A stretch of 64,000 nt of DNA from contig OX597834.1 in the NCBI GenBank assembly GCA_951406725.2, positions 28,086,001-28,150,000 of the forward strand, given 5' to 3'. Both the position numbers and the translations under genes were made by a program. Below, in pieces: positions 1-61,751 of the stretch; positions within the stretch are counted from its first letter, which is position 1, and every line of letters begins with the position of its first letter. Below the pieces are notes generated by a model that was not told the origin of the DNA, did not search any database, and worked only from the letters and a program-made list of their open reading frames with translations. The DNA comes from Octopus vulgaris (lineage: Eukaryota).

Positions 1-571
1 CTTAAAGGTTAAAAAATATATATATTTGCGTCAATATGTCTGAAGAATATTAAAAAAAAATTTTTTTTCCTTACAATGACATAATTTAGAAGAAAGACCG
101 GTTTCGCGTTTAGCTTTTCAAATTTCTTACGACGTTATATATATATATGTATGTATGTAAACGAACTCACACGCGCGCACGTGTCTGTGTGTGGAGACGC
201 ATGAGTTGATAGTTAGAGTGTTGGACTCATAATCGTAAGATTGTGATTTCAATTCCTGGACCGGGTGACGCGTTGTATTCTTGAGCAAAACACCCCATTT
301 CGTGTTACTCCAGTTCACTCGGCAGCCAGAAATGAGTAGTCCTGCAACGGACCTGCGTCTCGTCCAGGAGGTGAATATATTGTTTGTTCCTTCTCGAGCC
401 ATGCCTGGATCATTGGGCCGGTTTCCCGGTTTCATTGGCGTATAGGTTCCCCACCTGGACGGGACACCAGTCCGTCGCAGGTGAGCTGCAAAATGTAGGA
501 GGAAAGAGTGAGAGAAAGTTGTGGCGAGAGAGTCAGCAGAAGTTCGCCATTACCTTCTGCCGGAGCCGCAT

Positions 572-1957: not shown

Positions 1958-2107
1958 TAAGAAATAAGTGGAAATTTTACCGGTGAGTGTGTTAAATAAT
2001 AAGGCACTAAAAGAGAATGACTCTCCCCAGACACAACAGAATATGCTTCAACACACGAACTCATATAAAGAATCTTGCAAACCAAATCCAAAAACGAAAC
2101 TTTAACT

Positions 2108-2531
2108 ACGTAAAGTATACTAGCCATCTTAATATGGCTAACCACTAGGGGTGGGGGGTGATACTATAGCTTTTTAGCCCCAGGAGATCATCGTCTCCAG
2201 CTGGCTTTAGACACAATCCTGTGCCCTTTAATGATATTCGCAAAGGGAGGTCATCCCCTCTCGAAAACCTAAGTGATACGCATGGACTGCAGTTTCGAGA
2301 TTATTGTCTCTTGTAGCGTGTGTTGACAAGAGACAATAATCTCGAAACTGCAGTACATGCGTATCACTTAGGTTTTCGAGAGGGGATGACCTCCCTTTGC
2401 GAATATCATTAAAGAGCACAGGATTGTGTCTAAAGCCAGCTAGAGATGATGATCTCCTGGGGCTAAAAAGCTATAGTAACACCCCCACCCCTAGTGGTTA
2501 GCCATATTAAGATGGCTAGTATACTTTACGT
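2108..2531. mobile_element. Fold-back copy of a related hammerhead element: ~205-bp arms, 13-nt spacer
   Basis: Arms 2108-2313 and 2327-2531 are reverse complements with few mismatches; homologous to the 352-bp family; direct repeat aaactttaacta at 2097 and 2574 may be a TSD. Confidence 0.8.
2316..2362 (+). ncRNA. Minimal type I hammerhead, U3-A8 variant core
   Basis: GCGUGUG UUGACAA GAGA CAAUAA UCUC GAAAC UGCA GUA^ CAUGCGU; stem III ACUGCAGU is palindromic; stem I relies on G-U pairs. Confidence 0.7.
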
Positions 2532-3195
2532 TGTCGAGCGTTTACTGTTTACATCTCGCTCAGAGATTTATTAAAACTTTAACTAGTTTTCCTCAAAACA
2601 CTGTCAATCGAGAAACTGGTCCTATAAGTCTAAATGACTCGGAAGTCCATTCGTTGCAAGCATTTAGGGCTGGTATTCGGTTCGTGGAGGCCTGGCTTGC
2701 TTCTTTCTACCCATCATGAAGGTTATGTAAAAGTTATGGGTACTGCCCTTCCTTCCTAACAAAGATAAACAAAGAGTGAAACACACACATCGCCCGGTCT
2801 GAGATTCGAACCCGCGGTCCCTCGACCGCGAGTTCGCTGCTCTGACCACTAGGCCATGTGCCTCCACCTAGGTGAATATATACCCCACCGAAATCGAGAA
2901 ACTGGCACTATGAGTCTATATGACATGGGAGTCCATTCGTTGCAAGCATTTAGGGCTGGTATTCGGTTCGAGGAGGCCTCCCTTGCTTCTTTCTACCCAT
3001 CATGAAGGTTATGTAAACGTTATGGGTACTGCCCTTCCTTCCTAACAAAGATAAACAAAGAGTGAAACACACACATCGCCCGGTTTGAGATTCGAACCCG
3101 CGGTCACGCGACCGCGAGTTCGCTGCTCTGACCACTAGGCCATGTGCCTCTACATGCCACAACTATACGCTATATGAAATGCCAAAGTGACTTAC

Positions 3196-5318: not shown

Positions 5319-5985
5319 TAGTTTTATTTTTATAGCGTGCTTTCACTTCACTACCGAGCACAGCTCTGTGTGCCTTGGGTATGTGCTGTCATTTGTTGTG
5401 ATGCTCTGATGGTTATTGTATGGAAAGTGTTCTGCGTAGGATGTGTGCAGTGCCTAGTAGTGCAATTTTCTGTATGTTATATGTGTTTGTAAGTCCTGGT
5501 GTTTTTGTTATGTATTTGTCTGAATATTTTTTTATCATGCCTAATGCACCTACTATGATAGGAATTGTTTCTGTTTTCAGATTCCACATTCTAGTTACCT
5601 CTATTTCCAGGTCTTTGTATTTTGAGAGTTTCTCCATTTCTTTTAGAGACACGTTGTCATCAGCCGGTATTGATACATCAATTAGAAAGCATTTTTTTCT
5701 TCATGATCTCTGACAACTATATCTGGTCTGTTGGCCTTAATTTCTCTATCTGTGTGTATCGGCATATCCCAGAGTATGGTTGCTTTCTCGTTTTCTGTGA
5801 CCTTTTCTGGTGTGTGCCTATACCATCTTTTTTCTGTTGTTATTCCATAATGTTGGCATAGCTTCCAATGTATGTAGGTTCCAACTCTGTCATGTCTGTG
5901 AATATATTCCTTCTTAGCCAAGACTGGGCAGCTAGAGATAATATGATTTATTGTTTCTTGTCCATCTCCACATATTCTGCATGAT
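5316..5985 (-). mobile_element. 5'-truncated RLE-type non-LTR retrotransposon (R4/Dong-like): C-terminus and 3' UTR
   Basis: CRICG..HIISSC zinc finger, RHD, PDIVV and KLSKY restriction-like endonuclease motifs; one frameshift near 5690; ends in (AAT)n. Confidence 0.85.
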
Positions 5986-6237
5986 CGTGATGTTCCACGC
6001 ATGTTTACATGTGTTGCGTTAGAGGCGGAGATGATATCGAGTCAAAATACATCATTTCGTTTCGAAAAATAGTAATAAATTTCAATTAGTATTACTTACT
6101 CGGATACAGTCCAATTCTTTGTTAGTAAAACTTTGGCTCCATAGGATGTCCTTGTTTTCGATGTTTGTGGATAGATTTCGGAGCTCTGAATTTTCCTTCT
6201 TACATCTTAAACGTCCCCGGTGTTCTTCTTCTTCTTC

Positions 6238-11021: not shown

Positions 11022-11460
11022 ATTTGCCATTTGAATATGGCTAACCCCTAAGGGTGGATGCTACTGTAGTTTGTAGCCCCAGGATGTTATCTCCTCCAGC
11101 TGGCTATAGACACACTATCTGTGTCCTCTCTCAGTATTTGTGAAGGGGAGTCATCCTCCCCGTCTTCAACTCATGATACACACGGACCCGAGTTTCAAGG
11201 TGTTTACCTTTCATCAGCGTGTGACAATCATGGTTGTCGACGAGAAGTCAGCTCCCTTCACAAATACATATACTTTTTCCAGTGTCGATTGACACTGATA
11301 TTGAAAAAGTGAAATCAAACAATGATAAATCTCAGAGCGAGTTATAAACAGTAGCGGTAACACATCGTGACGCATATTTGCCATTTGAATATGGCTAACC
11401 CCTAAGGGTGGATGCTACTGTAGTTTGTAGCCCCAGGAAGATATCTCCTCCAGCTAGCTA
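11022..11460 (-). mobile_element. Hammerhead-bearing retrozyme/Penelope-pLTR-like element, ~1.25 copies of a 354-bp monomer
   Basis: atttgccatttgaatatggc recurs at 11022 and 11376; contains a hammerhead; next to (TA)n. Confidence 0.75.
11179..11223 (-). ncRNA. Type I hammerhead ribozyme, canonical core
   Basis: CACACG CUGAUGA AAGGU AAAC ACCUU GAAAC UCGG GUC^ CGUGUG: perfect stems I and II, short quasi-palindromic stem III. Confidence 0.9.
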
Positions 11461-11727
11461 TTTTTAAAAATGAATAAATGAAAGAATGGAGTCGAACGAA
11501 GATTTTAACAAAATTCCTTTACTTTCAACACATGTTTCGAAGACTGCATATTCTTAATTCCGAAGGAATAAAGGGTGCATTATGCCGTCTTCTCATCATT
11601 TATTCATGCACCCTTTATTCCTTTGGAATTAAGAATATGCAGTCTTCGAAACATGTGTTGAAAGTAAAGGAATTTTGTTAAAATCTTCGTTCGACTCCAT
11701 TCTTTCATTTATTCATTTTTAAAAATA
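11459..11727. mobile_element. Fold-back pLTR-like element (122-bp arms, 25-nt spacer) with a truncated hammerhead-like motif on the minus strand
   Basis: Arms 11459-11580 and 11606-11727 differ at one position; minus strand reads UGAUGA GAAGAC...GUCUUC GAAAC AUGU. Confidence 0.65.
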
Positions 11728-14404: not shown

Positions 14405-14863
14405 GTGACGCATATTTGCCATTTGAATATGGCTAACCCCTAAGGGTGGATGCTACTGTAGTTTGTAGCCCCAGGAAGATATCTCCTCCAGCTGGCTATA
14501 GACACACTATCTGTGTCCTCTCAGTATTTGTGAAGGGGAGTCATCCTCCCCGTCTTCAACTCATGATACACACGGACCCGAGTTTCAAGGTGTTTACCTT
14601 TCATCAGCGTGTGCCAATCATGGTTGTCGACGAGAAGTCAGCTCCCTTCACAAATACATATACTTTTTCCAGTGTCGATTGACACTGATATTGAAAAAGT
14701 GAAATCAAACAATGATAAATCTCAGAGCGAGTTATAAACAGTAGCGGTAACACATCGTGACGCATATCTGCCATTTGAATATGGCTAACCCCTAAGGGTG
14801 GATGCTACTGTAGTTTGTAGCCCCAGGAAGATATCTCCTCCAGCTGGCTATAGACACACTATC

Positions 14864-14864
<1 letters not shown>
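14405..14864 (-). mobile_element. Same family, ~1.3 copies of a 352-bp monomer embedded in (TA)n
   Basis: gtgacgcata recurs at 14405 and 14757; nearly identical to 11022-11460. Confidence 0.78.
14569..14613 (-). ncRNA. Type I hammerhead ribozyme, canonical core (identical to 11179-11223)
   Basis: Same 45-nt motif in a second copy of the ~352-bp repeat. Confidence 0.9.
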
Positions 14865-16255: not shown

Positions 16256-17219
16256 TGATAATAGTGGTGGTGGTGGTGGTGGTGGTAGGAGATATTAGTT
16301 ATAGTGGTTGTGAGAGGGGCTATTCATTAATGCTGGTGATGAGGGTTAGTGAGAGGTAATATTAGTAGTGACAGTGGGGGGGCGCGGTACCTGATATTAG
16401 TTAATGGAGAGGTGGGTGATGGTAGTTGTGATGGTTGTGGTAGGAGGATAGGAGTTAATCTTCGTGATGGTAATACTAGTGGTAGGAGGTACTATAAGTA
16501 ATGGTGGTGGTGGTGGTGGTGGTGGTGGTGGCGGCGGACGTGATTCTGGCATTGAAAGTGGGTGTGCTTAAACGTTGGGGGGGGGGGTTGTGTTGATGAT
16601 GATTATGATGGTGGTAGTGATGATGATGATGTTGATGGTGGTGGGCGTTGACGATGATGATGAGGAGGAGGTCTTCTCAATTAGAAACTGTAATGAAAGT
16701 GTGGGGTACAGAAGGACGAGGAATGAGTGATAGGTGCGAAGAGTGGCGGAGGGAGCAAGTAGTGGGGGAAGAAAGATCGGTGTGGTGAGGTGATGTGAAA
16801 TGTTGGGGGTACGGTTCATTAATAAGGCTACACAACACAAAACCTATTTTTCTCCCCAATTATGAAAATTTTATCGAGGCTTTTGGCACCTCTCACTCGC
16901 AATATCTTGATAATCTTTTTTTTCTTTTTTTACTTTTTCATCTTTTGTTTCTTTCTTTCTTTCACTGGGCTGCGGCCATGCTGGGATACCCGCCTTAATG
17001 GGTTTTTAGCCGAACAAATCGATATCCAGTCCTTAATTTTAATTTGTATATATATATATATATATATATATAGCAACAATAAATTTCTGAGCGAGACATA
17101 AACAGCAGCAGCACGACATCGTGAAGAACACCTGCCACCCAAATGTGGCCGACCCCTAAGGGCCGATGCTACTGTAGCTTGCAGCCCCAGGAAGACATCT
17201 CCTCCAGCTGGCTTTGACA

Positions 17220-17318
<99 letters not shown>

Positions 17319-20287: not shown

Positions 20288-21180
20288 ATAGGTCAACGTT
20301 AATGTGAACGAACGTAACTGGACGCATCGATCTAAAGGCAACCTTCGCCACACACGCCCCCGCGCGCGCGAACGAGGGCCGGAACGCAGGTTGAACTTCA
20401 ATGCCTACCCCCAAAAGTGTGTTGCGCCTTTGGGAAAGCGAGGAGGAGTGTTGCGAAAATCCGATAACTGTCACTGAAATATGGCAAGCGATGCTTAATT
20501 GTACATGAGGCAAATCGCCTGGTTTTGATGATCTACCATGCGAACTTTTCGCTTTTATACTAAATTTCTAAGCCAACGTCTTGACATATATCTACTGCAA
20601 CTGGTAGCAAAACGGGAGAACCTGCCAGTTCAGTGGCTTTGCTGTGAAAGGAACCGAATATAGAGAATGTGGAGGACATAGCCTAGTGGTTACAGCAGCG
20701 GACTCGCGGTCGAGGGATCGCGGGTTCGAATCTCAGACCGGACGATATGTGTTTATGAGCGAAAACATCTAAACTCCACGTGGCTCCGGCATAAGGTAAT
20801 AGCGAACTTCTACTGACTCTTTCACCACTACTTTCTCTCACTCTTTCTTCTTGCATCTAGTAGCTCACCTGCGACGGACGGGCGTCCCGTCCAGGTGGGG
20901 AACCTATGCGCCAAGGAAACCGGGAAACCGGCCCTTATGAACCAGGTGTGGCTCAAGAAGGAACAAAACAATATAGAGAATACATTGAGAGTTTTCGTCC
21001 CTATAACTCTGCTAAACGCAGATTTCAAGATTTTTCCCAAAATAATAGCGAAAAGGTTGACGCTTTTCATCAGTAGTCTGGCTGGTGTTGTACAAATACG
21101 CAACATCCCAAACAGGTCCGTTCACGACGTATTCCGCATCATCCCATACATAATAGAAAGGACGGGGGCGAGGAGTCTGG
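20288..21180 (+). pseudogene. Decayed Tx1/L1-type reverse transcriptase fragment interrupted by a SINE
   Basis: KSPGFDDLPCE and PITLLNADFKIFPKIIAKRL motifs; stops and frameshifts. Confidence 0.75.
20669..20969 (+). mobile_element. tRNA-derived SINE (family A head, different tail); relatives at 381-660, 8030-8295 and 54012-54318 on the minus strand
   Basis: GGTTCGAATC B box; TSD aatatagagaat at 20657 and 20970. Confidence 0.88.
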
Positions 21181-21452
21181 TATGAGTGAGGTTCTAGTGA
21201 CAATAACTCTGAGCACCTGCGGCGAGCTGGCAGAAACGTTAGCACACCGGGCGAAATGCATAGCAGTATTCCATCTGCCGTTACGTTCTGAGTTCAAATT
21301 CCGCTGAGGTCGACTTTGCCTTTCATCCTTTCGGGGTCGATAAATTAAGTACCAGTTACGCACTGGGGTCGATATAATCGACTTAATACCTATGACTGTC
21401 ATTGTTTGTCCCCTCTATGTTTAGCCCCTTGTGGGTAATAAAGAAATAGGTA

Positions 21453-22673
21453 CTACGGACCTATTCTAGCTCGCGTGACGCCATCGCCCTCTTCGACAAG
21501 GGTATTATTAACAAAGAGCTGGCAAAATGTTTGCCAGCTAAAAATTATTATGTGACCAGGGGTGTCAAATACGCCACGGTGTGGCTACTTTTCGACACTC
21601 CTGAGGAGGTTTGCACTGTGGAAGGCCAGGCCTGGAAGGGGAGGAGATTTTGTTTCTTCCCACATATCGTGGAAAGAAGGTGATAAGGGCCCGGGTATGT
21701 GGTCTTCCCCCGGGCACCGGAGCGGGGCGAATTGCAGATGCCATCCGGCGAGGCCTGGGGGATAGCGGGCCCAGGCTTTTAAATACAGAGATAAAGCCTG
21801 CGGTCGACTGGGAGGGTGCAAAGGCAACTTTGACCCTATGGAGCCCAGTGCCCGCGGGGGAAATGACTTTCTCCGACTTTTTAAAAATGGATGGCTCAAG
21901 GTATCCAGTGATACTTGAGGGTCGCCCCCCCCCACCACCAATGTGTCACTCGTGCCTGGAGTCAGGCCACATTAAGAAGGACTGCCCTGGGGGCCGTGGT
22001 AAGGTCCCGGAACAGGGAAAGATGAAGGTGTCCTCCGCTCTCCCATTGCAGGGAGAAACGGCGGAAGTCGTTGAGGTATCGGCCCCAAAAAGAAGAAAAA
22101 GAAAGGTGAGCAACAATGGTTGCTCACCAACAGACGCGCAGGTTGCGGGAGACGAAGAGGACCCGCCCCCGGGTGTGCCGGTGAAGGCTCCGACTCCCGC
22201 ACCCGTAAGAAGGAAAAAGAGAAACGGGAGACGGTCGGCGGATAACGCTGTGCCGTCGACTAAATCCGATGCTCCTCCGGTGGAAGGTGTGCCACCAGGA
22301 GCGGGAGGCTCTGTCAGTGGGAATTGTGCCACTGACAGAGCGTGCTGAGGCCCCTCCCTGTGAGGAGGACGTGAAACCCGTCGTTTTCTATCTCAGGGAA
22401 GGGTCTCGAGAAATGCTTGGACGGTCTTCCAGGCCGAGAACGATTGGATTCGGTTTGTATACACTGTCCAGACTGGCCTCCGCAGGTGGCTGCGGACGTC
22501 GTGAGTCAGAAGGAGCTGTTCGAGGTCATGGTGACCTTGTAATAAGGAAGATTTTGCTTTCCTCTTTCCGGGCCCCGACCTGCCGATGCAGGCTTTCCTG
22601 CAGGCGGCGTGGCATTTGCTTGGGGGCTCCGATGAAGAGGATTGATCTTAAAGATTGTCTGTGTTTTGAATAA
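21453..22673 (+). pseudogene. Decayed ORF1 (gag-like) of a Tx1/L1-type LINE
   Basis: GC-rich 245-aa ORF with zinc knuckle CHSCLESGHIKKDC followed by a basic, Pro-rich tail; frameshifts upstream. Confidence 0.7.
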
Positions 22674-23193
22674 TATATATATGGGGTTTATTAACAGCTT
22701 TTATTGAAGAACTCAAAAGAGTTGTCTCCCCTTATTCACAACACAGGAACTGAAGAACCACAATTACTACTACTTCCTGTTTTGCCAACATCCTCAATTA
22801 AACCAAACAACACATGCTCTTAATCCCATTGGATCCTAATACCTCAAGGTAATTTTTTCGTGAACAATCATTAAACTCAAGATACACAACGAACTCACAA
22901 TGTATCGGAGTACTTATTTTTTAATTTTTGTACATATTTATTATTATTCTTTTGCAAAAATCAATGCAATTTTCTTTTTTTCCCCTTTCTAATTTTTAAA
23001 AAACTTTTTCACCTAAATATTCTTGACAAGTCATACAATGACGAAAACCGGTTTGAATAAATATATATTTATATATTTTATCAATTTCTCATTTCATTAA
23101 AATTTTCTTTCATTTGAGCATTCTGCATTTTTACAATTTTTCCTTGCTTATCATTTCTCCACGTGCGGTCAACACAACCCCACCATTTATTGA

Positions 23194-42490: not shown

Positions 42491-42631
42491 TTATGTCGCT
42501 TCAACCGGTGACATCTGTGCGGTCCTACCCATGCTGTATACACTTTCTAGGTTGGCCAAGTTCTCAAAGTAAGGGATGAGGTCGTACAGTTCCCGGTCTT
42601 CTTCATCGTCGAACCATGAACTGACTGGAAC
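42491..42631 (-). CDS. CTDSPL: CTD small phosphatase last coding exon: [46 protein letters not shown]
   Basis: Polypyrimidine tract plus cag acceptor; VPV-x-SWFD-x3-D-x-EL motif; TAA stop at 42491-42493. Confidence 0.95.
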
Positions 42632-42748
42632 CTGGAGGGAAAGAAAGACAGTGTTAGAACATTGAAATATTTTATATGAAGAATCAGATACAAACGTGTG
42701 TGTGTGTGTGTGTGGTTGCTGTTTGTAGTGTTGTTTAGCTCCATATCT

Positions 42749-42980
42749 ATTTCTTTACAACCCACTAGGGGGCTAAACACAGAGAGGACAAACGAGGACA
42801 GACAAACGGATTAAGTCAGTTATACTGACCCCAGTGCGTAACTGGTACTTATTTAATGGACCCCGAAAGGATGAAAGGCAAAGTCGACCTCGGCCGAATT
42901 TGAACTCAGAACGTAAAGGCAGACGAAATACGGCTATGCATTTCGTCCGGCGTGCTAACATTTCTGCCAACTCGCCGCCT
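42749..42980 (-). mobile_element. SINE family B (GTCGACTTTGCCTTTCATCCTTTCGGGGTCGAT core); many copies, e.g. 3475-3703, 6371-6785, 21220-21452, 59050-59278
   Basis: GAGTTCAAATTC B box; 18-bp TSD ttgtttagctccatatct at 42731 and 42981. Confidence 0.9.
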
Positions 42981-45846: not shown

Positions 45847-46425
45847 ACACCCGTGTACATATTTACAAAGTCAGAAAACAGCATAGCTCCCATGACTTTA
45901 GGAAACATTTTTTTCAGGCTGAGAGTTGAAGCATGGAACAAACTGTCGGCATTAGTTGTTAGTTGTTGGAGCACTGCATCCTTCAAAACTTCCATGCTTC
46001 CTGAGATTCGCCAACACTACACCTGATTGACTTTCAGAAACATTTTTTTCACACTAAGGGTTGCTGAAGTATGGAACAAACTGCCAGAATCAGTTGTTAG
46101 TTGTCGGAGCACTGCATCATTCAAAACTTCCATGCTTCCTGAGATTCGCCAACACTACACCTGATTGACTTTCAGAAACATTTTTTCACGCTGAGGGTTG
46201 CTGAAGTATGGAACAAACTGCCGGAATCAGTTGTTAGTTGTCGGAGCACTGCATCATTCAAAACTTCCATGCTTCCTGAGATTCGCCAACACTATACCTG
46301 ATTTCCTCCCCTCCATACACACACTGTTCGCTTTCCAGACATTTGTACATTACTGCATAAACTTTATACGCACTTTCTGACAAGTTGTGGTGCACCTGAG
46401 CACTGTATACAATAATTTCATTATC
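45847..46425 (+). mobile_element. CR1-like LINE 3' end with a triplicated ~138-bp unit
   Basis: RKHFFTLRVAEVWNKLPESVV-type CR1 C-terminal motif repeated three times. Confidence 0.65.
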
Positions 46426-47174: not shown

Positions 47175-47326
47175 CACTCATGAATTTCATTACAAACAAC
47201 ATGGACCAAATTTCTTCTTAAGAAAAAAAATATATTCATATAAATTAAACATTATATCATGAATAGCGATTGCGAAACCGGTCGATATATTAAAAATTAT
47301 ATTAAAACCATGTAAGTGTGCGTGTG

Positions 47327-47369
<43 letters not shown>

Positions 47370-49576
47370 AGAAAGTGAGAGTTGTATTTTAATGTAGAGG
47401 TGTACATGTGCAATCAATGGATTATGTATACATCTACATAAAGGTAACCTAGTCTTGTTTTTTAGGAACGTATCTGGGACTACATTGTCTAATGTGTTAT
47501 TCCAGTTTTTACACAGTACAGTATGTGTATAAAATCAGAGAATTAGGCTGTTATTTCTAGCAGATAAAGATACCACATAGGGGTTCACGTGTATGCACAA
47601 ATTGTAGGAATTAGACTATTATTTCCAGCAAGGCTGAGGTACCGAATGAGAGTTACCTCACTGGCTTGTGAAGGTAGTAGTGTGTGAAGTCACAGATGCT
47701 GGACGAGTTAATAAAGTGTTAAAGAGTTGTTTCCCTTGCTTCAAATTTTTTGTTTTTTTTTTAGATTTCGAACAACTTGGTCTTTGGAGAAAGCTTTTTG
47801 TCTACTAATAACATAAATAATCTCATCATATGAGACAGGCAGAAACGTTACAGTGTTGGGTAAAAAGCTTCTACAGTATTTATTCAAGCACTCAGCGCTA
47901 CGAGTTCAAATCCTACCAAAGTCAAATTTTATTTTTTGTCCTTTCAGGAACAATAAAATATAGTACCAGCCAAAAACTAGACTCAATAGAATCAATTAAA
48001 CCCTTGCTGGAACATTCTTGGCCATATACCAACCAATACTAGAAACAAACCATGTGGTTTCAGGTTCAGTCCTGCTCAACATCACATCACCTTGGGCATG
48101 TATCTTCTACTGTAGATCCAGGCTAACAGATGCCGTGTGAGTGAAGGTTGTAGATGGAAACTGTGTGGAAGCCCATCACGTGTGTGTGGGGGGGTGAGTA
48201 TACACCTGTATTTGTGTTTGAATTTGTCCCCCATCATCACCACCACCTGACAACTAGTGTTGCTTTGTTTATGTCCTTATAACTTAACAATTCAGCGAAA
48301 GAGACCAATAAAATAAGTACAAGAGCTGACTGGTTCAAACTAAGCCCTCCAGTGCTCCAGTACGGCTTCAGTGCAATGACTGAAACAAATAAAAGATAAA
48401 TATAAAGCCTTGCTAAACTTGTTATCAACAGCCAAGTCCTAGGTCTACAGTTAAAATCCTGCAACCAGCACCTCTCAGTGTCCTTGAGCTAAATAGACTT
48501 ACCGCTCCCTCACTTTGCTACCATCATCATCATCGTTTAACGTCCATTCTCCATGCTAGCATGTGTTGGACAGTTCAACTGCGGTCTGGGAAGCCAGAAG
48601 GCTGCACCAGGCTCCAGTCTGATCTGGCAGTTTTTCTACGGCTGGATGCCCTTCCTAACGCCAACCACTCCATGAGTGTAGTGGGTGCTTTTTACGTGCC
48701 AGACGAGGCTGGCAAACGGCCACGATCAGATGGTGCTTTTTACGTGCCACCGGCATGGAGGCCAGACGAGGCTGGCAATGGCCATGATCGGATGGTGCTT
48801 TTTACGTGTCACTGGCACGGAGGCCATTCAGAGCGGCGCTGGCAACGGCCACGTTCGGATGGTTCTCTTACGTGCCACCGGCACTGGTATCACAGCTACA
48901 ATTTCCATTGATGTTGATCGATTTCGATTTTCGCCTTTCATTAACCCATAGGCATAGGGAGTGGCTGTGTGGTAAGTAGCTTGCTTACCAACCACATGCT
49001 TCCAGGTTCAGTCCTACTGTGTGGCACCATGGGCAATTGTCTTCTACTATAGCCTCAGGTCAACCAAAGCCTTGTGAGTGGATTTAGTAGACAGAAACTG
49101 AAAGAAGCCTGTCGTATATATATATATATATATGTATGTATATGTGTGTGTGTGTGTATGTTTCTGTGTCTGTGTTTGTCCCATCAACATCGCTTGACAA
49201 CCGTTGCTGGTGTGTTTACATCCCTGTAACTTAGCGGTTCAGCTAAAAGAGACCGATAGAATAAATACTAGGCTTACAAAGAATAAATCCTGGGGTCGAT
49301 TTGCTCGACTAAAGGCGGTGCTCCAGCATGGCCACAGCCAAATGACTGAAACAATTAAAAGAGTAACCCTTTTAGTGGCACTTTATGATATGCAGTGATG
49401 CAGTCTGGCCCATTCTAAAACCTGTGCTCGGGTTTGTAAGGGAAATAACTATATAAGCATTTTTAGAGATGTAAAGTATAATAGCCATCTCAATATGGCT
49501 AACCACAAAAATGCTTATATAGTTATTTCCCTTACAAACCCGAGCAACGCCGGGCGATACTGTAAGTCTCTATATA

Positions 49577-50109: not shown

Positions 50110-50150
<41 letters not shown>
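49912..50150. repeat. (AAT)n microsatellite starting about 10 nt into the intron after the 57-bp CTDSPL exon
   Basis: Seen directly; similar tracts at 4340-4435, 5250-5315, 6238-6369 and 16178-16262. Confidence 0.95.
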
Positions 50151-50153
<3 letters not shown>

Positions 50154-50161
50154 GCACTTAC

Positions 50162-50218
50162 TTGATGTGTAGTACCCTCGATTTCCACAGGAACAATAAA
50201 ATCTGCATTGTCTATAGG
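50162..50218 (-). CDS. CTDSPL: CTD small phosphatase exon: PIDNADFIVPVEIEGTTHQ
   Basis: 57 bp with canonical AG/GT; matches SCP family PVNNADFIIPVEIDG. Confidence 0.95.
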
Positions 50219-50910
50219 CTGAAAGAGAATAAACAGTCTGTTATTCTTGGCCAATTCCTGAATTTGGAATTTCATAAATGATAAAACAGTCACACATTCT
50301 TTGCTTGACCAGCAGAGATATCTGTCAGCTGGACAAAGCAGGCTTTGATATTTTGGTTTCTGTTGCTGTTTGTGAACACAGGAGCTACTTTGTGCAGAGA
50401 GGCACAAAGAGACTTGTTCTTCAATTAAGCCTATCCATCGTTAGACACTACAAGCAGTGTTGTTCTTAATCAAAGACGCTACTGAGCGGATGGCTCCGGG
50501 AGAGAGTGCAGGGGTGCAATGGTATGGGAGAAGGTGAGCAACCATACAAAGCAACCACTGAATCACAACATCAAATGATTATTTACAGCAGTGCCAAACT
50601 AACCATCCAGCCACTGTGCTTATTCACACCTCTCAGCTTTCAGGATTGAGAGTTTGGTTAGTTAATGCTACTGGAACTTACTAGTAATGCCACACGTTCC
50701 GTGTGTTTTTTCTCTCGGTGAAACAAGTTATAACAGAAGGAGGCAAGTGTGTGTTCCAATTTCATGATTAAACTTTCATATTTAGCACTCGTCAATAAAA
50801 TAATTACTGGTTGAATGTAATTGACTTACCAACTCCCTCAAAATTGCTGGTCCCATGCAAAAATTTGAAACCAATATTTAGCACTCATCATCATCATCGT
50901 TTAGCATCCA

Positions 50911-51095
50911 CTTTCCATGCTAGCATGGGTTGGACAGTTCAACTGGGGTCTGGGAAGCCAGAAGGCTGCACCAGGCCCAGTCTGGCATTAGGAAGGGCAT
51001 CCAGCAGAAACATTGCCAGATCAGACTGGGCCTGGTGCAGCCTTCTGGCTTCCCAGACCCCAGTTGAACTGTCCAACCCATGCTAGCATGGAAAG
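50911..51095. repeat. Fold-back of a (GAT)n-tailed retroposon 3' end; perfect 74-bp arms
   Basis: 50911-50984 is the exact reverse complement of 51022-51095; the ORF track gives matching peptides on both strands. Confidence 0.9.
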
Positions 51096-52035: not shown

Positions 52036-52637
52036 TAATGAAATTATTGTATACAGTGCTCAGGTGCACCACAACTTGTCAGAAAGTGCGTATAACGTGT
52101 ATGCAGTAATGTACAAATGTCTGGAAAGCGAACAATGTATGAGTCAGATACATGCTTGTGTGTGTATGGAGGGGAGAAAATCAGGTGTAGTGTTGGCGAA
52201 TCTCAGAAAGCATGGAAGTTTTGAAGGATGCAGTGCTCCGACAACCAACAACTGATGCCGGCAGTTTGTTCCATGCTTCAGCAACTCTCAGTGTGAAAAA
52301 ATGTTTCTGAAAGTCAATCAGGTGTAGTGTTGACAAATCTCAGGAAGCATGGAAGTTTTGAAGGATGCAGTGATCCGACAACCAACAACTGATGCCGGCA
52401 GTTTGTTCCATGCTTCAGCAACCCTCAGCGTGAAAAAATGTTTCTGAAAGTCAATCAGGTGTAGTGTTGGCGAATCTCAGGAAGCATGGAAGTTTTGAAG
52501 GATGCAGTGCTCCGACAACTAACAACCGATGCCGGCAGTTTGTTCCATGCTTCAGCAACCCTTAGCGGGAAAAAATGTTTCCTTAAAGTCATGGGAGCTG
52601 TGCTGTTTTCTGACTTTGTAAATATGTCCACGGGTGT
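52036..52637 (-). mobile_element. Second copy of the triplicated CR1-like element, inverted relative to 45847-46425
   Basis: Reverse complement with the same three-unit structure. Confidence 0.7.
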
Positions 52638-57572: not shown

Positions 57573-57633
<61 letters not shown>

Positions 57634-57858
57634 ATAGAAATATTAAAATAACTAGTCTCTCTAAAAGGAACAGCGGCAGCGTTCCGGAAAATAATAGTTA
57701 TCGCCATATAATATGGCATTCTTATAAAAATAAGAAAAAAGCTGTCCGCTTATTAGCTCCATGAAGCCATCGCCTTAAGTTAGCTATTTGATACACAAAC
57801 TGTATCCATATAACCTTCGAACAAGGGAGGTCAGTCGCTCCACACTACTTGACCGGCA

Positions 57859-57900
57859 GCTACAGACGCGTTTCGGGGTATTGCCCCTTTTCAATGCAGC
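57859..57900 (-). ncRNA. Minimal type I hammerhead, U3-A8 variant
   Basis: GCUGCA UUGAAAA GGGG CAAUA CCCC GAAAC GC GUC^ UGUAGC; stem III ACGCGU is palindromic. Confidence 0.78.
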
Positions 57901-58019
57901 GTAGCCAGCCAGTAGGTGTCGCTTCCGACAATCTCTGTTCGATGGTTTTATTTACCGAAACTAGGTAAATAAAACCATCGAACAGAGATTGTCGGAAGCG
58001 ACACCTACTGGCTGGCTAC

Positions 58020-58060
58020 GCTGCATTGAAAAGGGGCAATACCCGAAACGCGTCTGTAGC
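58020..58060 (+). ncRNA. Minimal type I hammerhead, U3-A8 variant (one C missing in stem II)
   Basis: GCUGCA UUGAAAA GGGG CAAUA CCC GAAAC GC GUC^ UGUAGC; predicted cut after 58054. Confidence 0.72.
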
Positions 58061-58379
58061 TGCCGGTCAAGTAGTGTGGAGCGACTGACCTCCCTTGTTC
58101 GAAGGTTATATGGATACAGTTTGTGTATCAAATAGCTAACTTAAGGCGATGGCCTCATGGAGCTAATAAGCGGACAGCTTTTTTCTTATTTTTATAAGAA
58201 TGCCATATTAGTATGGCGATAACTATTATTTTCCGGAACGCTGCCGCTGTTCTCTTTTAGAGAGACTTAGTTATTTTAATATTTCTATTATTGAAAACAA
58301 GTGGATGTATTCCACCGAAACTAGGTAAATAAAACCATCGAACAGAGATTGTCGGAAGCGACACCTACTGGCTGGCTAC

Positions 58380-58421
58380 GCTGTATTGAAAAGGGGCAAT
58401 ACCCCGAAACGCGTCTGTAGC
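58380..58421 (+). ncRNA. Minimal type I hammerhead, U3-A8 variant
   Basis: GCUGUA UUGAAAA GGGG CAAUA CCCC GAAAC GC GUC^ UGUAGC; predicted cut after 58415. Confidence 0.75.
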
Positions 58422-60395
58422 TGCCGGTCAAGTAGTGTGGAGCGACTGACCTCCCTTGTTCGAAGGTTATATGGATACAGTTTGTGTATCAAATAGCTAA
58501 CTTAAGGCGATGGCCTCATGGAGCTAATAAACGGACAGCTTTTTTCTTATTTTTATAAGAATGCCATATTAGTATGGCGATAACTATTATATATATATAT
58601 ATATACACATACACACACACACATTGTTTTAATTGGCAGAAGTTGCTAAGTGACTTAAGGGCCAAGAGTTTTGAGCAGTATATGTTTATATATATATATA
58701 TAAATAATGGCACTCTGTCGGTTATGACGACAAGGTTCCAGTTGATTTAATTAACAGAACAGCCTGCTTTTGAAATTAACATGCATGTGGCTGAGTACTC
58801 CACAGATATGTGTACCCTCAACGAAGTTCTCAAGGAGATCCAGTGTGACACAGAGTGTGACAAGGCTGGCCCCTTTGAATTACAGGTACAACTCATTTTT
58901 GCCAGCTGAGTGGACTGGAGTAACAAGCAATAAAGGGTCTTGCTCAAGGGCACAGTGTGTCGCCAGGAATTGAACTCAGGACCTTATGATCGTGAGCTGA
59001 ATACCCTAACCACTATACCACACACCTTCACATATATACATATGTATAACTATTTCTTTATTACCCACAAGGGGCTGAAAATAGAGGAGACAAACATGGA
59101 CAGACATAGGTATTAAGTCGATTATATCGACCCCAGTGCTTAACTGGTTCTTAATTTATCGACCCCGAAAGGATGAAAGGCAAAGTCGACCTCGGCGGAA
59201 TTTGAACTCACAACGTAACGGCAGACGAAATACCGCTAAGCATTTCGCCCGACGTGCTAACGATTCTGCTAGCTCGCCGAACAGCAAAAATTAACCTACA
59301 ACAATACATAACATTTTATCAAAGAGAAAATGGGAATGAAAAGATTGTGAAAAAAATCAGGGTGGATCTGTGCAATACATAAGGAAATCAGGGTGGATCA
59401 GTGCATGACTTGATAATAAACCGGGTAGAAAGAAAGGGGTGGAAAAATTAATAAAGAATCAATAACGAAACAATCGAAAATAATTAATGAATGAAAAGCA
59501 ATCAGTAAATAGGGTTGGTTATTAAAACGTGTGTGCGGAGAGTGTTGGTGAGGGTTTTAAAAAAAACACATACATAACAAAAAATAAAACAAAAAGTGGC
59601 AACAGCAGCAGCAACAGTGGCAGCAAGGTTAAAGGTTACAAACAACATCAGTTAAAATAAAAAGGGTTAAAAAAACAAAAAAATTTAGATAACAAAAATG
59701 CGTAAAAGCTGCGGGATAACAGACATTAAAAAAAATAGGAAAAACAAAAAAATTTAAAAAGTTAATTAAATAAGAATAAGTTATAACTTGTTTAAGAAAG
59801 CCGAGAAATTTCATTTTCTGTCCAAATTTCGCATTTCAAAAAACAAAATACAATTTTTAGATTTGGACCCTTTTTTTGAAATAAGTGGTGTTAAAATGAA
59901 AAGAAGTTTACTACTACAACTACCAATGCTACTAGTGTTACTAATAACTACTGATATTAATATTATTATGACAAAGACTACGACAATAGTGAATACGGAT
60001 ACCAAAATGCAAAAAATATAGAAATATTTTCAAAAATATTGTCATCATCTTCATTTTGCATTCGCTTTCCAAACAACCATGGGTTGAACTGGTTGCTGCA
60101 GTCTGAACCAGTTCTTAAGTTTTTGAGTCAGTAACTGTCTTCGTAGACAAGTCAGAGGGCAATGCTGTGCTAACCCATCTTAGACAGTAGTAATTCCATA
60201 ATAAAGAACTGATCCAGACCAACCAAGATCCCTTATCTGATCCCATACAATCACAGAAGGCAGTCAAAAAATGATGACAATGGTGATGAAATTTCAAAGA
60301 AAAAATATTGTACGAAAATAAAATGGTTTTGTAACTAAATGTATTTTTTGCATACGTCTCATAATTTCTAAGTGTTTCACACTTGGAACAATTCT

Positions 60396-61502: not shown

Positions 61503-61751
61503 CATTGTACTGATATGTTTCCATAGATTGATTAGAATATTGAGCTGTGGTCCAGAGTAAGACTAAGGAACAAGAGATCCCTACAGCAAATTTTCTTTCC
61601 CTTTCTACACAAAAATCTATGCCTCTGTAACACTGCAAGGAGTCAACAGTGGCTAATGGGAGAAGAGACAGAGGAACGTAACTAAATGATAAGAAACCAA
61701 CTTTTGCTATTTCAGTTTCACTTATATTAACTTTTCAAAGTATTTCCATAA

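Follow-up and report, generated by a model that had tools for sequence, protein, structure and literature searches.

The window, the whole stretch of 64,000 nucleotides (64 kb) of Octopus vulgaris DNA analysed here, is AT-rich eukaryotic DNA with many microsatellites and short repeats and a G+C content of 27-50% in 2-kb steps. Scanning of the 64 kb for hammerhead ribozymes with positions 3, 7 and 8 of the core left unconstrained retrieved nine motifs, which are referred to as family A (the 58-kb repeats), family B (the 2.3-kb repeats), family C (the 352-nt repeats) and the solitary motifs D, E and F:

57859..57900, minus strand: hammerhead of family A copy 1, core UUGAAAA (U3 at 57894, A8 at 57889), predicted cut after C17 at 57865
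58020..58060, plus strand: hammerhead of family A copy 2, core UUGAAAA (U3 at 58026, A8 at 58031), predicted cut after 58054
58380..58421, plus strand: hammerhead of family A copy 3, core UUGAAAA (U3 at 58386, A8 at 58391), predicted cut after 58415
2316-2362, plus strand: hammerhead of family B, core UUGACAA at 2323-2329, A17 at 2355
11217-11211, minus strand: canonical core CUGAUGA (C3-G8) of the hammerhead in the first family C insertion
14607-14601, minus strand: canonical core CUGAUGA (C3-G8) of the hammerhead in the second family C insertion
23018..23059, plus strand: motif D, solitary and hammerhead-like, core UUGACAA from 23023 (U3-A8)
47253..47289, plus strand: motif E, solitary and hammerhead-like, core AUGAAUA from 47259 (A3-U8), helix II of 2 bp
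90..128, minus strand: motif F, core UUGAAAA from 121 (U3-A8), one extra U preceding the core

The cores UUGAAAA of the three 58-kb copies and UUGACAA at 2323-2329, which a sequence-only reading of this DNA had reported, were recovered by the free-position scan, and the limits 57859 and 58421 given there coincide with the 3' ends of helix I of copies 1 and 3. Motifs D, E and F, two with U3-A8 and one with A3-U8, are additions to that list, such that seven of the nine motifs in 64 kb possess a non-canonical core; the U3-A8 copies are indeed missed by a search with the string CUGANGA, as had been pointed out.

Throughout the eight motifs parsed, U4, G5, A6 and A9, G12, A13 and A14, the A15.1-U16.1 pair and H17 of the type I hammerhead core are present, with a helix II of 2-5 bp and a palindromic helix III of 6-8 nt. 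Three helices surround the core, with helix I open and helix III consisting of the palindrome only, which requires a second copy. In families A, B and C, helix I comprises 6-7 bp and helix II 3-5 bp, and A15.1-U16.1 closes the palindromic helix III; the helix sequences vary from family to family, yet pair within each. The motifs of families A and B have in common a helix I of 6-7 bp, a helix II of 3-4 bp starting with G10.1-C11.1 (in family A copy 2 short by one C), GAA-A15.1, U16.1 and H17, with the palindromes ACGCGU and ACUGCAGU as helix III. By anatomy, these hammerhead-shaped motifs are to be considered real type I hammerheads, with cleavage as a prediction. Thresholds chosen after the hits were known (palindromic helix III of at least 6 nt, helix I of at least 5 bp) left the shuffled windows with about 0.01 motifs each: four motifs were encountered in 400 block-wise dinucleotide shuffles versus eight in the real window if no slip was permitted, and six in 400 shuffled windows versus one in the real window with one slip allowed. 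Two further scan hits on the minus strand, at 61738 (U-A) and 48079 (U-C mismatch at 3/8), were weak, had no palindromic helix III and were dropped. Rfam models at E of at most 10 gave no hammerhead match in 58230-58580 and equally missed family C with its canonical core, so the models are non-discriminating here; over the whole window at E of at most 1, the best 150 of 208 matches are microRNA-type hairpins or microsatellites only.

The hammerheads of families A, B and C are embedded in the following repeat copies:

57631..57956, minus strand: family A copy 1, inverted and 5'-truncated, placed head-to-head against copy 2 and meeting the (TA)n of 57575-57633 at its 3' end
57956..58315, plus strand: family A copy 2, one complete 360-nt unit
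58316..58590, plus strand: family A copy 3, a partial unit terminating in (TA)n
2105..2314, minus strand: family B inverted partial copy, which begins at core A6 and so has A8 but no U3
2315..2571, plus strand: family B forward copy
11022..11461, minus strand: family C insertion with a 354-nt unit
14410..14864, minus strand: family C insertion with a 352-nt unit

With 98.5-99% identity and (TA)n at both flanks, the three family A copies form one insertion; the earlier statement that all three copies read UUGAAAA is correct for each of them, but the observation counts once. The ends of the A and C insertions adjoin (TA)n; family B is situated outside any microsatellite. Inverted copies are part of the A and B insertions, and complete hammerheads in two consecutive units are found in copies 2 and 3 of family A, with one hammerhead in each of the B and C insertions. 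Tandem repeats of 286-287 nt at 574-1119 and 2606-3150 include the right-hand neighbour of family B; on the minus strand this repeat has, by eye, a tRNA-like start, in which ARAGORN finds no tRNA. Considered as a family member, the 287-nt repeat next to family B proved unrelated to A and C.

Relatedness of the families was assessed in the region 3' of the ribozyme. Pairwise identity is 66% for A with B, which agree at 94 of 143 aligned sites, 62% for A with C and 77% for B with C, with none of 1000 shuffles matching the score in any of the three comparisons, and a multiple alignment gives 60-62%, 56-57% and 69-71%, respectively, with the same ranking. Furthermore, one degenerate motif of 41-44 nt has seven matches covering all three families, with none expected; in family A its location is:

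58447..58487, plus strand: motif shared by A, B and C, 3' of the ribozyme, followed by a shared terminal hairpin at about 58562-58578

These alignments together with the shared motif show that A and B are relatives, and A, B and C are homologous families, not the 'two independent families' that had been proposed for the 58-kb and 2.3-kb elements. The proposed kinship of the 2.3-kb element with the canonical 352-nt family, on the other hand, is borne out, as family B resembles canonical C more than it does A, and the swap accordingly falls within one lineage. Two ribozyme-less 3' fragments of the superfamily, at 17079-17222 and 49471-49506 on the minus strand, bring the total to six insertions in 64 kb. 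Alignment detected no homology of motifs D and E to A, B or C; D is located about 350 nt downstream of a LINE-like remnant. E and F have an 11-letter stretch in common, which with one mismatch has two matches in the window versus 0.34 expected, and because 4 of 100 shuffles reach two matches, kinship of E and F is only suggested. Both motifs are AT-rich with a 2-bp helix II, an identical helix III and shared letters over helices II and III, and both adjoin AT microsatellites. Metagenome contigs held no match to the shared A/B/C motif; the 21 matches to the E/F motif, none of which has a helix I of at least 5 bp, were taken as chance, and four matches of the U3-A8 pattern in viral contigs, judged by eye to have an unconvincing helix I, were left unused.

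Beyond the window, the family A stretch was found in 20 of the 24 public runs listed, representing 10 studies and 7 organism labels. Contigs of four runs (2286, 1813, 1115 and 35) were placed on one permuted unit, 58230-58590, at a likeness of at least 80%, a placement that excludes families less than 80% alike, with contigs losing rare variants. In all four runs no alternative letter reaches 2% at U3 (58386) or A8 (58391), and U3-A8 accounts for at least 98% of the depth; as no other letter attains this level at either position, U3-A8 is the fixed state of family A. In one run (X12), two contigs span both positions with a single other letter, which is necessarily at 58384, and these contigs therefore carry U3 and A8 in phase. 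Differences of at least 2% amount to 26 rows over 356 sites with none at the 12 core sites, an outcome that is not significant given 26 variable sites (P ~0.40). The folded part contains 24 variants, of which 11 fall at unpaired sites, nine keep and four break a pair; pairing is thus kept in 9 of 13 paired-site variants versus 0.54 expected for transitions, three of the four pair-breaking variants resting on at most four contigs and one pair-keeping variant being the private letter of the window. Among the loose ends listed, divergent contigs read UUGAUAA (X2, three contigs) or end in UUGAC (X4, one contig), with N7 altered and U3 kept, five divergent X3 contigs read UAGAGAA with U4 lost, and others enter (TA)n at 58291. 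Depth in X3 drops to about 1,500 immediately upstream of the core, and many contigs stop near there. At 58251 and 58589, many contigs have a different segment in place of 58230-58250, which points to further subfamilies of family A. No run with family A is recorded as RNA and one is guessed to be RNA (35 contigs); contigs cannot show circles, strand or RNA ends. The joints that go back within the unit were discarded as evidence for circles, as they merely close the permuted reference stretch.

Each unit of about 350-360 nt contains one type I hammerhead, and two features of family A concern its predicted RNA:

58055..58415, plus strand: predicted cut-to-cut RNA monomer, 361 nt, 41% G+C, 64% paired if folded as a circle
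58329..58473, plus strand: long helix I extension enclosing the ribozyme, fold z -4.7

Helix I of family A extends into a long stem with internal loops, and family C possesses an equivalent long helix I fold with another sequence (z -7.3). The unit sizes (361 nt in A, 352 and 354 nt in C) and the 41% G+C of family A lie within the approximately 170-400 nt and below the 45% G+C that delimit retrozymes. The palindromic helices III are predicted to self-pair as duplexes with -7.5 to -11.1 kcal/mol; ensemble folding of a family A dimer gives the dimeric helix III a probability of less than 0.1%, and cutting might accordingly be slow or require assistance. No Pfam family was detected in the four frames of at least 75 aa overlapping A, B or C; of 102 filtered frames of the window, three have any Pfam hit, all elsewhere, with neither a Penelope-type domain nor an autonomous partner, and no window frame for a reverse transcriptase or GIY-YIG endonuclease adjoins the repeats. 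Starting from anatomy, homology and the fixed U3-A8 of family A, which are directly supported, we consider it very probable that A, B and C have diverged within a single superfamily of non-autonomous Penelope-type retroelements that lack coding capacity (non-LTR retrozymes), with a proposed cut-and-copy cycle.

Known non-LTR retrozymes have a G+C content below 45%, in mussels possess units of 350-390 bp expressed as circles (Cervera and De la Pena, 2020; PMC7229834), and derive from Penelope-like elements (Li et al., preprint 10.64898/2026.07.22.740005). Common to them and to the octopus repeats are one type I hammerhead per tandem unit, here of 350-360 nt, the G+C content below 45%, the non-coding nature and the strong self-pairing; the octopus repeats differ by the U3-A8 pair of A and B, unmentioned in the portions of these two sources covered here, and by the inverted truncated copy, with circles being a prediction here. 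In Penelope-like insertions, too, tandems are partial, a 5'-truncated copy lies inverted beside them and microsatellites are favoured as targets (Craig et al., 2021; PMC8557442); this resembles the tandem with its inverted 5'-truncated copy and the microsatellite targets of A and C, whereas a reverse transcriptase or GIY-YIG frame beside the repeats is missing here. Another comparable system is the Cercyon group of Penelope-like elements of Schistosoma mansoni, in which U3-A8 replaces C3-G8 and whose approximately 1,300 hits a first descriptor had missed (Cervera and De la Pena, 2014; PMC4209133). As in the octopus window, U3-A8 occurs there beside C3-G8 kin in one genome, with paired motifs on opposite strands. 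In contrast, in Cercyon hammerheads helix II measures 7-8 bp and helix III is nearly absent, while the octopus motifs combine a helix I of 6-7 bp, a helix II of about 4 bp and the palindromic helix III of 6-8 nt with no coding element seen; a minimal hammerhead, defined by a helix II of 7-8 bp and an absent or vestigial helix III, therefore differs from the motifs with their 2-5 bp and palindromes of 6-8 nt. Penelope-type minimal hammerheads show low cleavage in vitro, and a dimeric arrangement via helix III has been described for animal type I hammerheads (PMC4209133).

By analogy with these elements, the cycle would begin with a transcript through two tandem units, in which the palindromic helices III of the two motifs would pair and the RNA be cut after H17. 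The cut would release a monomer of about 360 nt able to circularise, which an autonomous Penelope-like element might copy back by means of its reverse transcriptase and endonuclease, and this copying back would give tandem and inverted 5'-truncated insertions in (TA)n. Since U3-A8 would preserve the tertiary Watson-Crick pair of the core, the ribozyme is proposed to stay usable, although perhaps slower.

Alternatively, the ribozyme might be a relic, with U3-A8 inherited and family A spreading with or without cutting, in which case the fixed core would reflect recent amplification of one master rather than present selection. The frequency with which an unvaried core is expected among the 26 variable sites listed, the unfavoured dimer fold in the model and the contig group with a broken U4 (UAGAGAA) agree with such a scenario, and Naiad-type elements spread without canonical hammerheads (PMC8557442). 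Against it, the core, the palindromic helix III and the long helix I have been retained in all three families, although identity between them is 56-71% and the helix letters differ, and the better-supported stem variants mostly preserve pairing, which makes a relic unlikely compared with the retrozyme reading. Equally, selection on catalysis, which had been derived from the double change, can reasonably be assumed between families, but within family A the data give no proof of it, as the 12 unvaried core sites have P ~0.40.

Between families, the covariation of positions 3 and 8 is genuine. The pair is Watson-Crick in nine of nine motifs, which represent six sequence types, compared with 39 of 112 chance hits from shuffles and 6 of 21 unrelated metagenome contig matches to the E/F pattern, and this difference marks the family-level covariation as real; the compensatory nature of the swap had thus been recognised correctly. 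U-A is found in A, B, D and F, C-G in C only and A-U in E, the latter being a candidate for a natural A3-U8 pair based on a single copy. Any Watson-Crick pair at positions 3 and 8 may be able to retain hammerhead cleavage. The C3-G8 pair of the hammerhead core has been confirmed (PMC3884650), and its covariation to U3-A8 has been observed in several natural hammerheads, with such pairs being active in vitro (Perreault et al., 2011; PMC3088659). The same U3-A8 covariation is seen here, while A3-U8 as in motif E is unlisted in the section on core variants of that work.

At least one double change at positions 3 and 8 has occurred inside the A/B/C superfamily. Two gains of U3-A8, in A and B, and one gain with a reversion to C3-G8 in C are of equal cost with two double changes each. 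More tentatively, and with some doubt on our part, the hammerheads of this genome might mostly use non-canonical 3-8 pairs, with the superfamily, a very abundant one, having switched between U3-A8 and C3-G8, possibly with reversion, and a second lineage between U3-A8 and A3-U8, such that active ribozymes with three kinds of pairs would coexist, largely missed by canonical searches. That two unrelated families arrived at U3-A8 separately, as in the sequence-only reading, seems very improbable: A stands furthest from the other two (56-62%), two gains are as parsimonious as gain and reversion, and motif D, which has U3-A8 but could not be aligned as a homologue of any of the three families, leaves room for separate origins in this genome, but the homology of A, B and C (0 of 1000 shuffles for each pair, shared motif) speaks against it and the U3-A8 common to A and B may be inherited. 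Least credible of all is that U3 and A8 are ordinary transitions in dead canonical copies or AT-rich chance matches. Both changes are transitions, an ancestral C7-G8 in B would be a CpG, B has position 3 in one copy only, each of D, E and F is solitary and rich in AT, and helix II of E has just 2 bp (the single copies B, D, E and F belonging to families outside the public-run sample). However, the depth of U3-A8 in four runs refutes decay for A, the inverted copy of B likewise carries A8, and none of nine motifs has a 3/8 mismatch at a chance level of about 0.01 motifs per shuffled window.

Both the U3-A8 variant, in print since 2011, and the element type are already known, and as U3-A8 is known the mechanism is unchanged; what stands out in the window is the high non-canonical share of seven in nine motifs together with the candidate A3-U8. 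Octopus vulgaris Penelope-like families have been counted in a work whose main text is without the terms hammerhead, ribozyme and retrozyme (PMC13282606), and a literature search covering few subscription papers, with supplements outside its scope, gave no description of these octopus families or of a natural A3-U8. One search in a study of Penelope-like elements used the literal cuganga string (PMC8557442); if the proportions of the window hold genome-wide, CUGANGA censuses would undercount hammerhead repeats several-fold in this animal group. Sister families with C-G, U-A and A-U in similar scaffolds might furthermore serve as a natural series to relate the 3-8 pair to cleavage rate and retroelement success.

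Other features of the window are of a different kind. A tRNA gene search of the window found none. LINE-like remnants, recognised by eye, extend over 20817-22673 on the plus strand with a reverse-transcriptase-like stretch at 20817-21185 and a zinc-knuckle-like frame at 21605-22348 that has no Pfam hit, and 5685-6041 on the minus strand, with a weak zf-RVT Pfam match (E 0.00011), is likely another LINE remnant. A probable host phosphatase exon is located at 42494-42754 on the minus strand (Pfam NIF, E 0.00027, slightly below the curated cut-off), and a second probable exon of this gene at about 50150-50440 on the same strand was recognised by eye alone. The near-perfect inverted repeat of 115 nt at 50946-51060 is matched by microRNA models below their cut-offs only. 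Finally, two 137-nt tandem arrays at 45893-46324 and 52158-52591, with three copies each and about 5.8 kb apart, are 93% mutually complementary.
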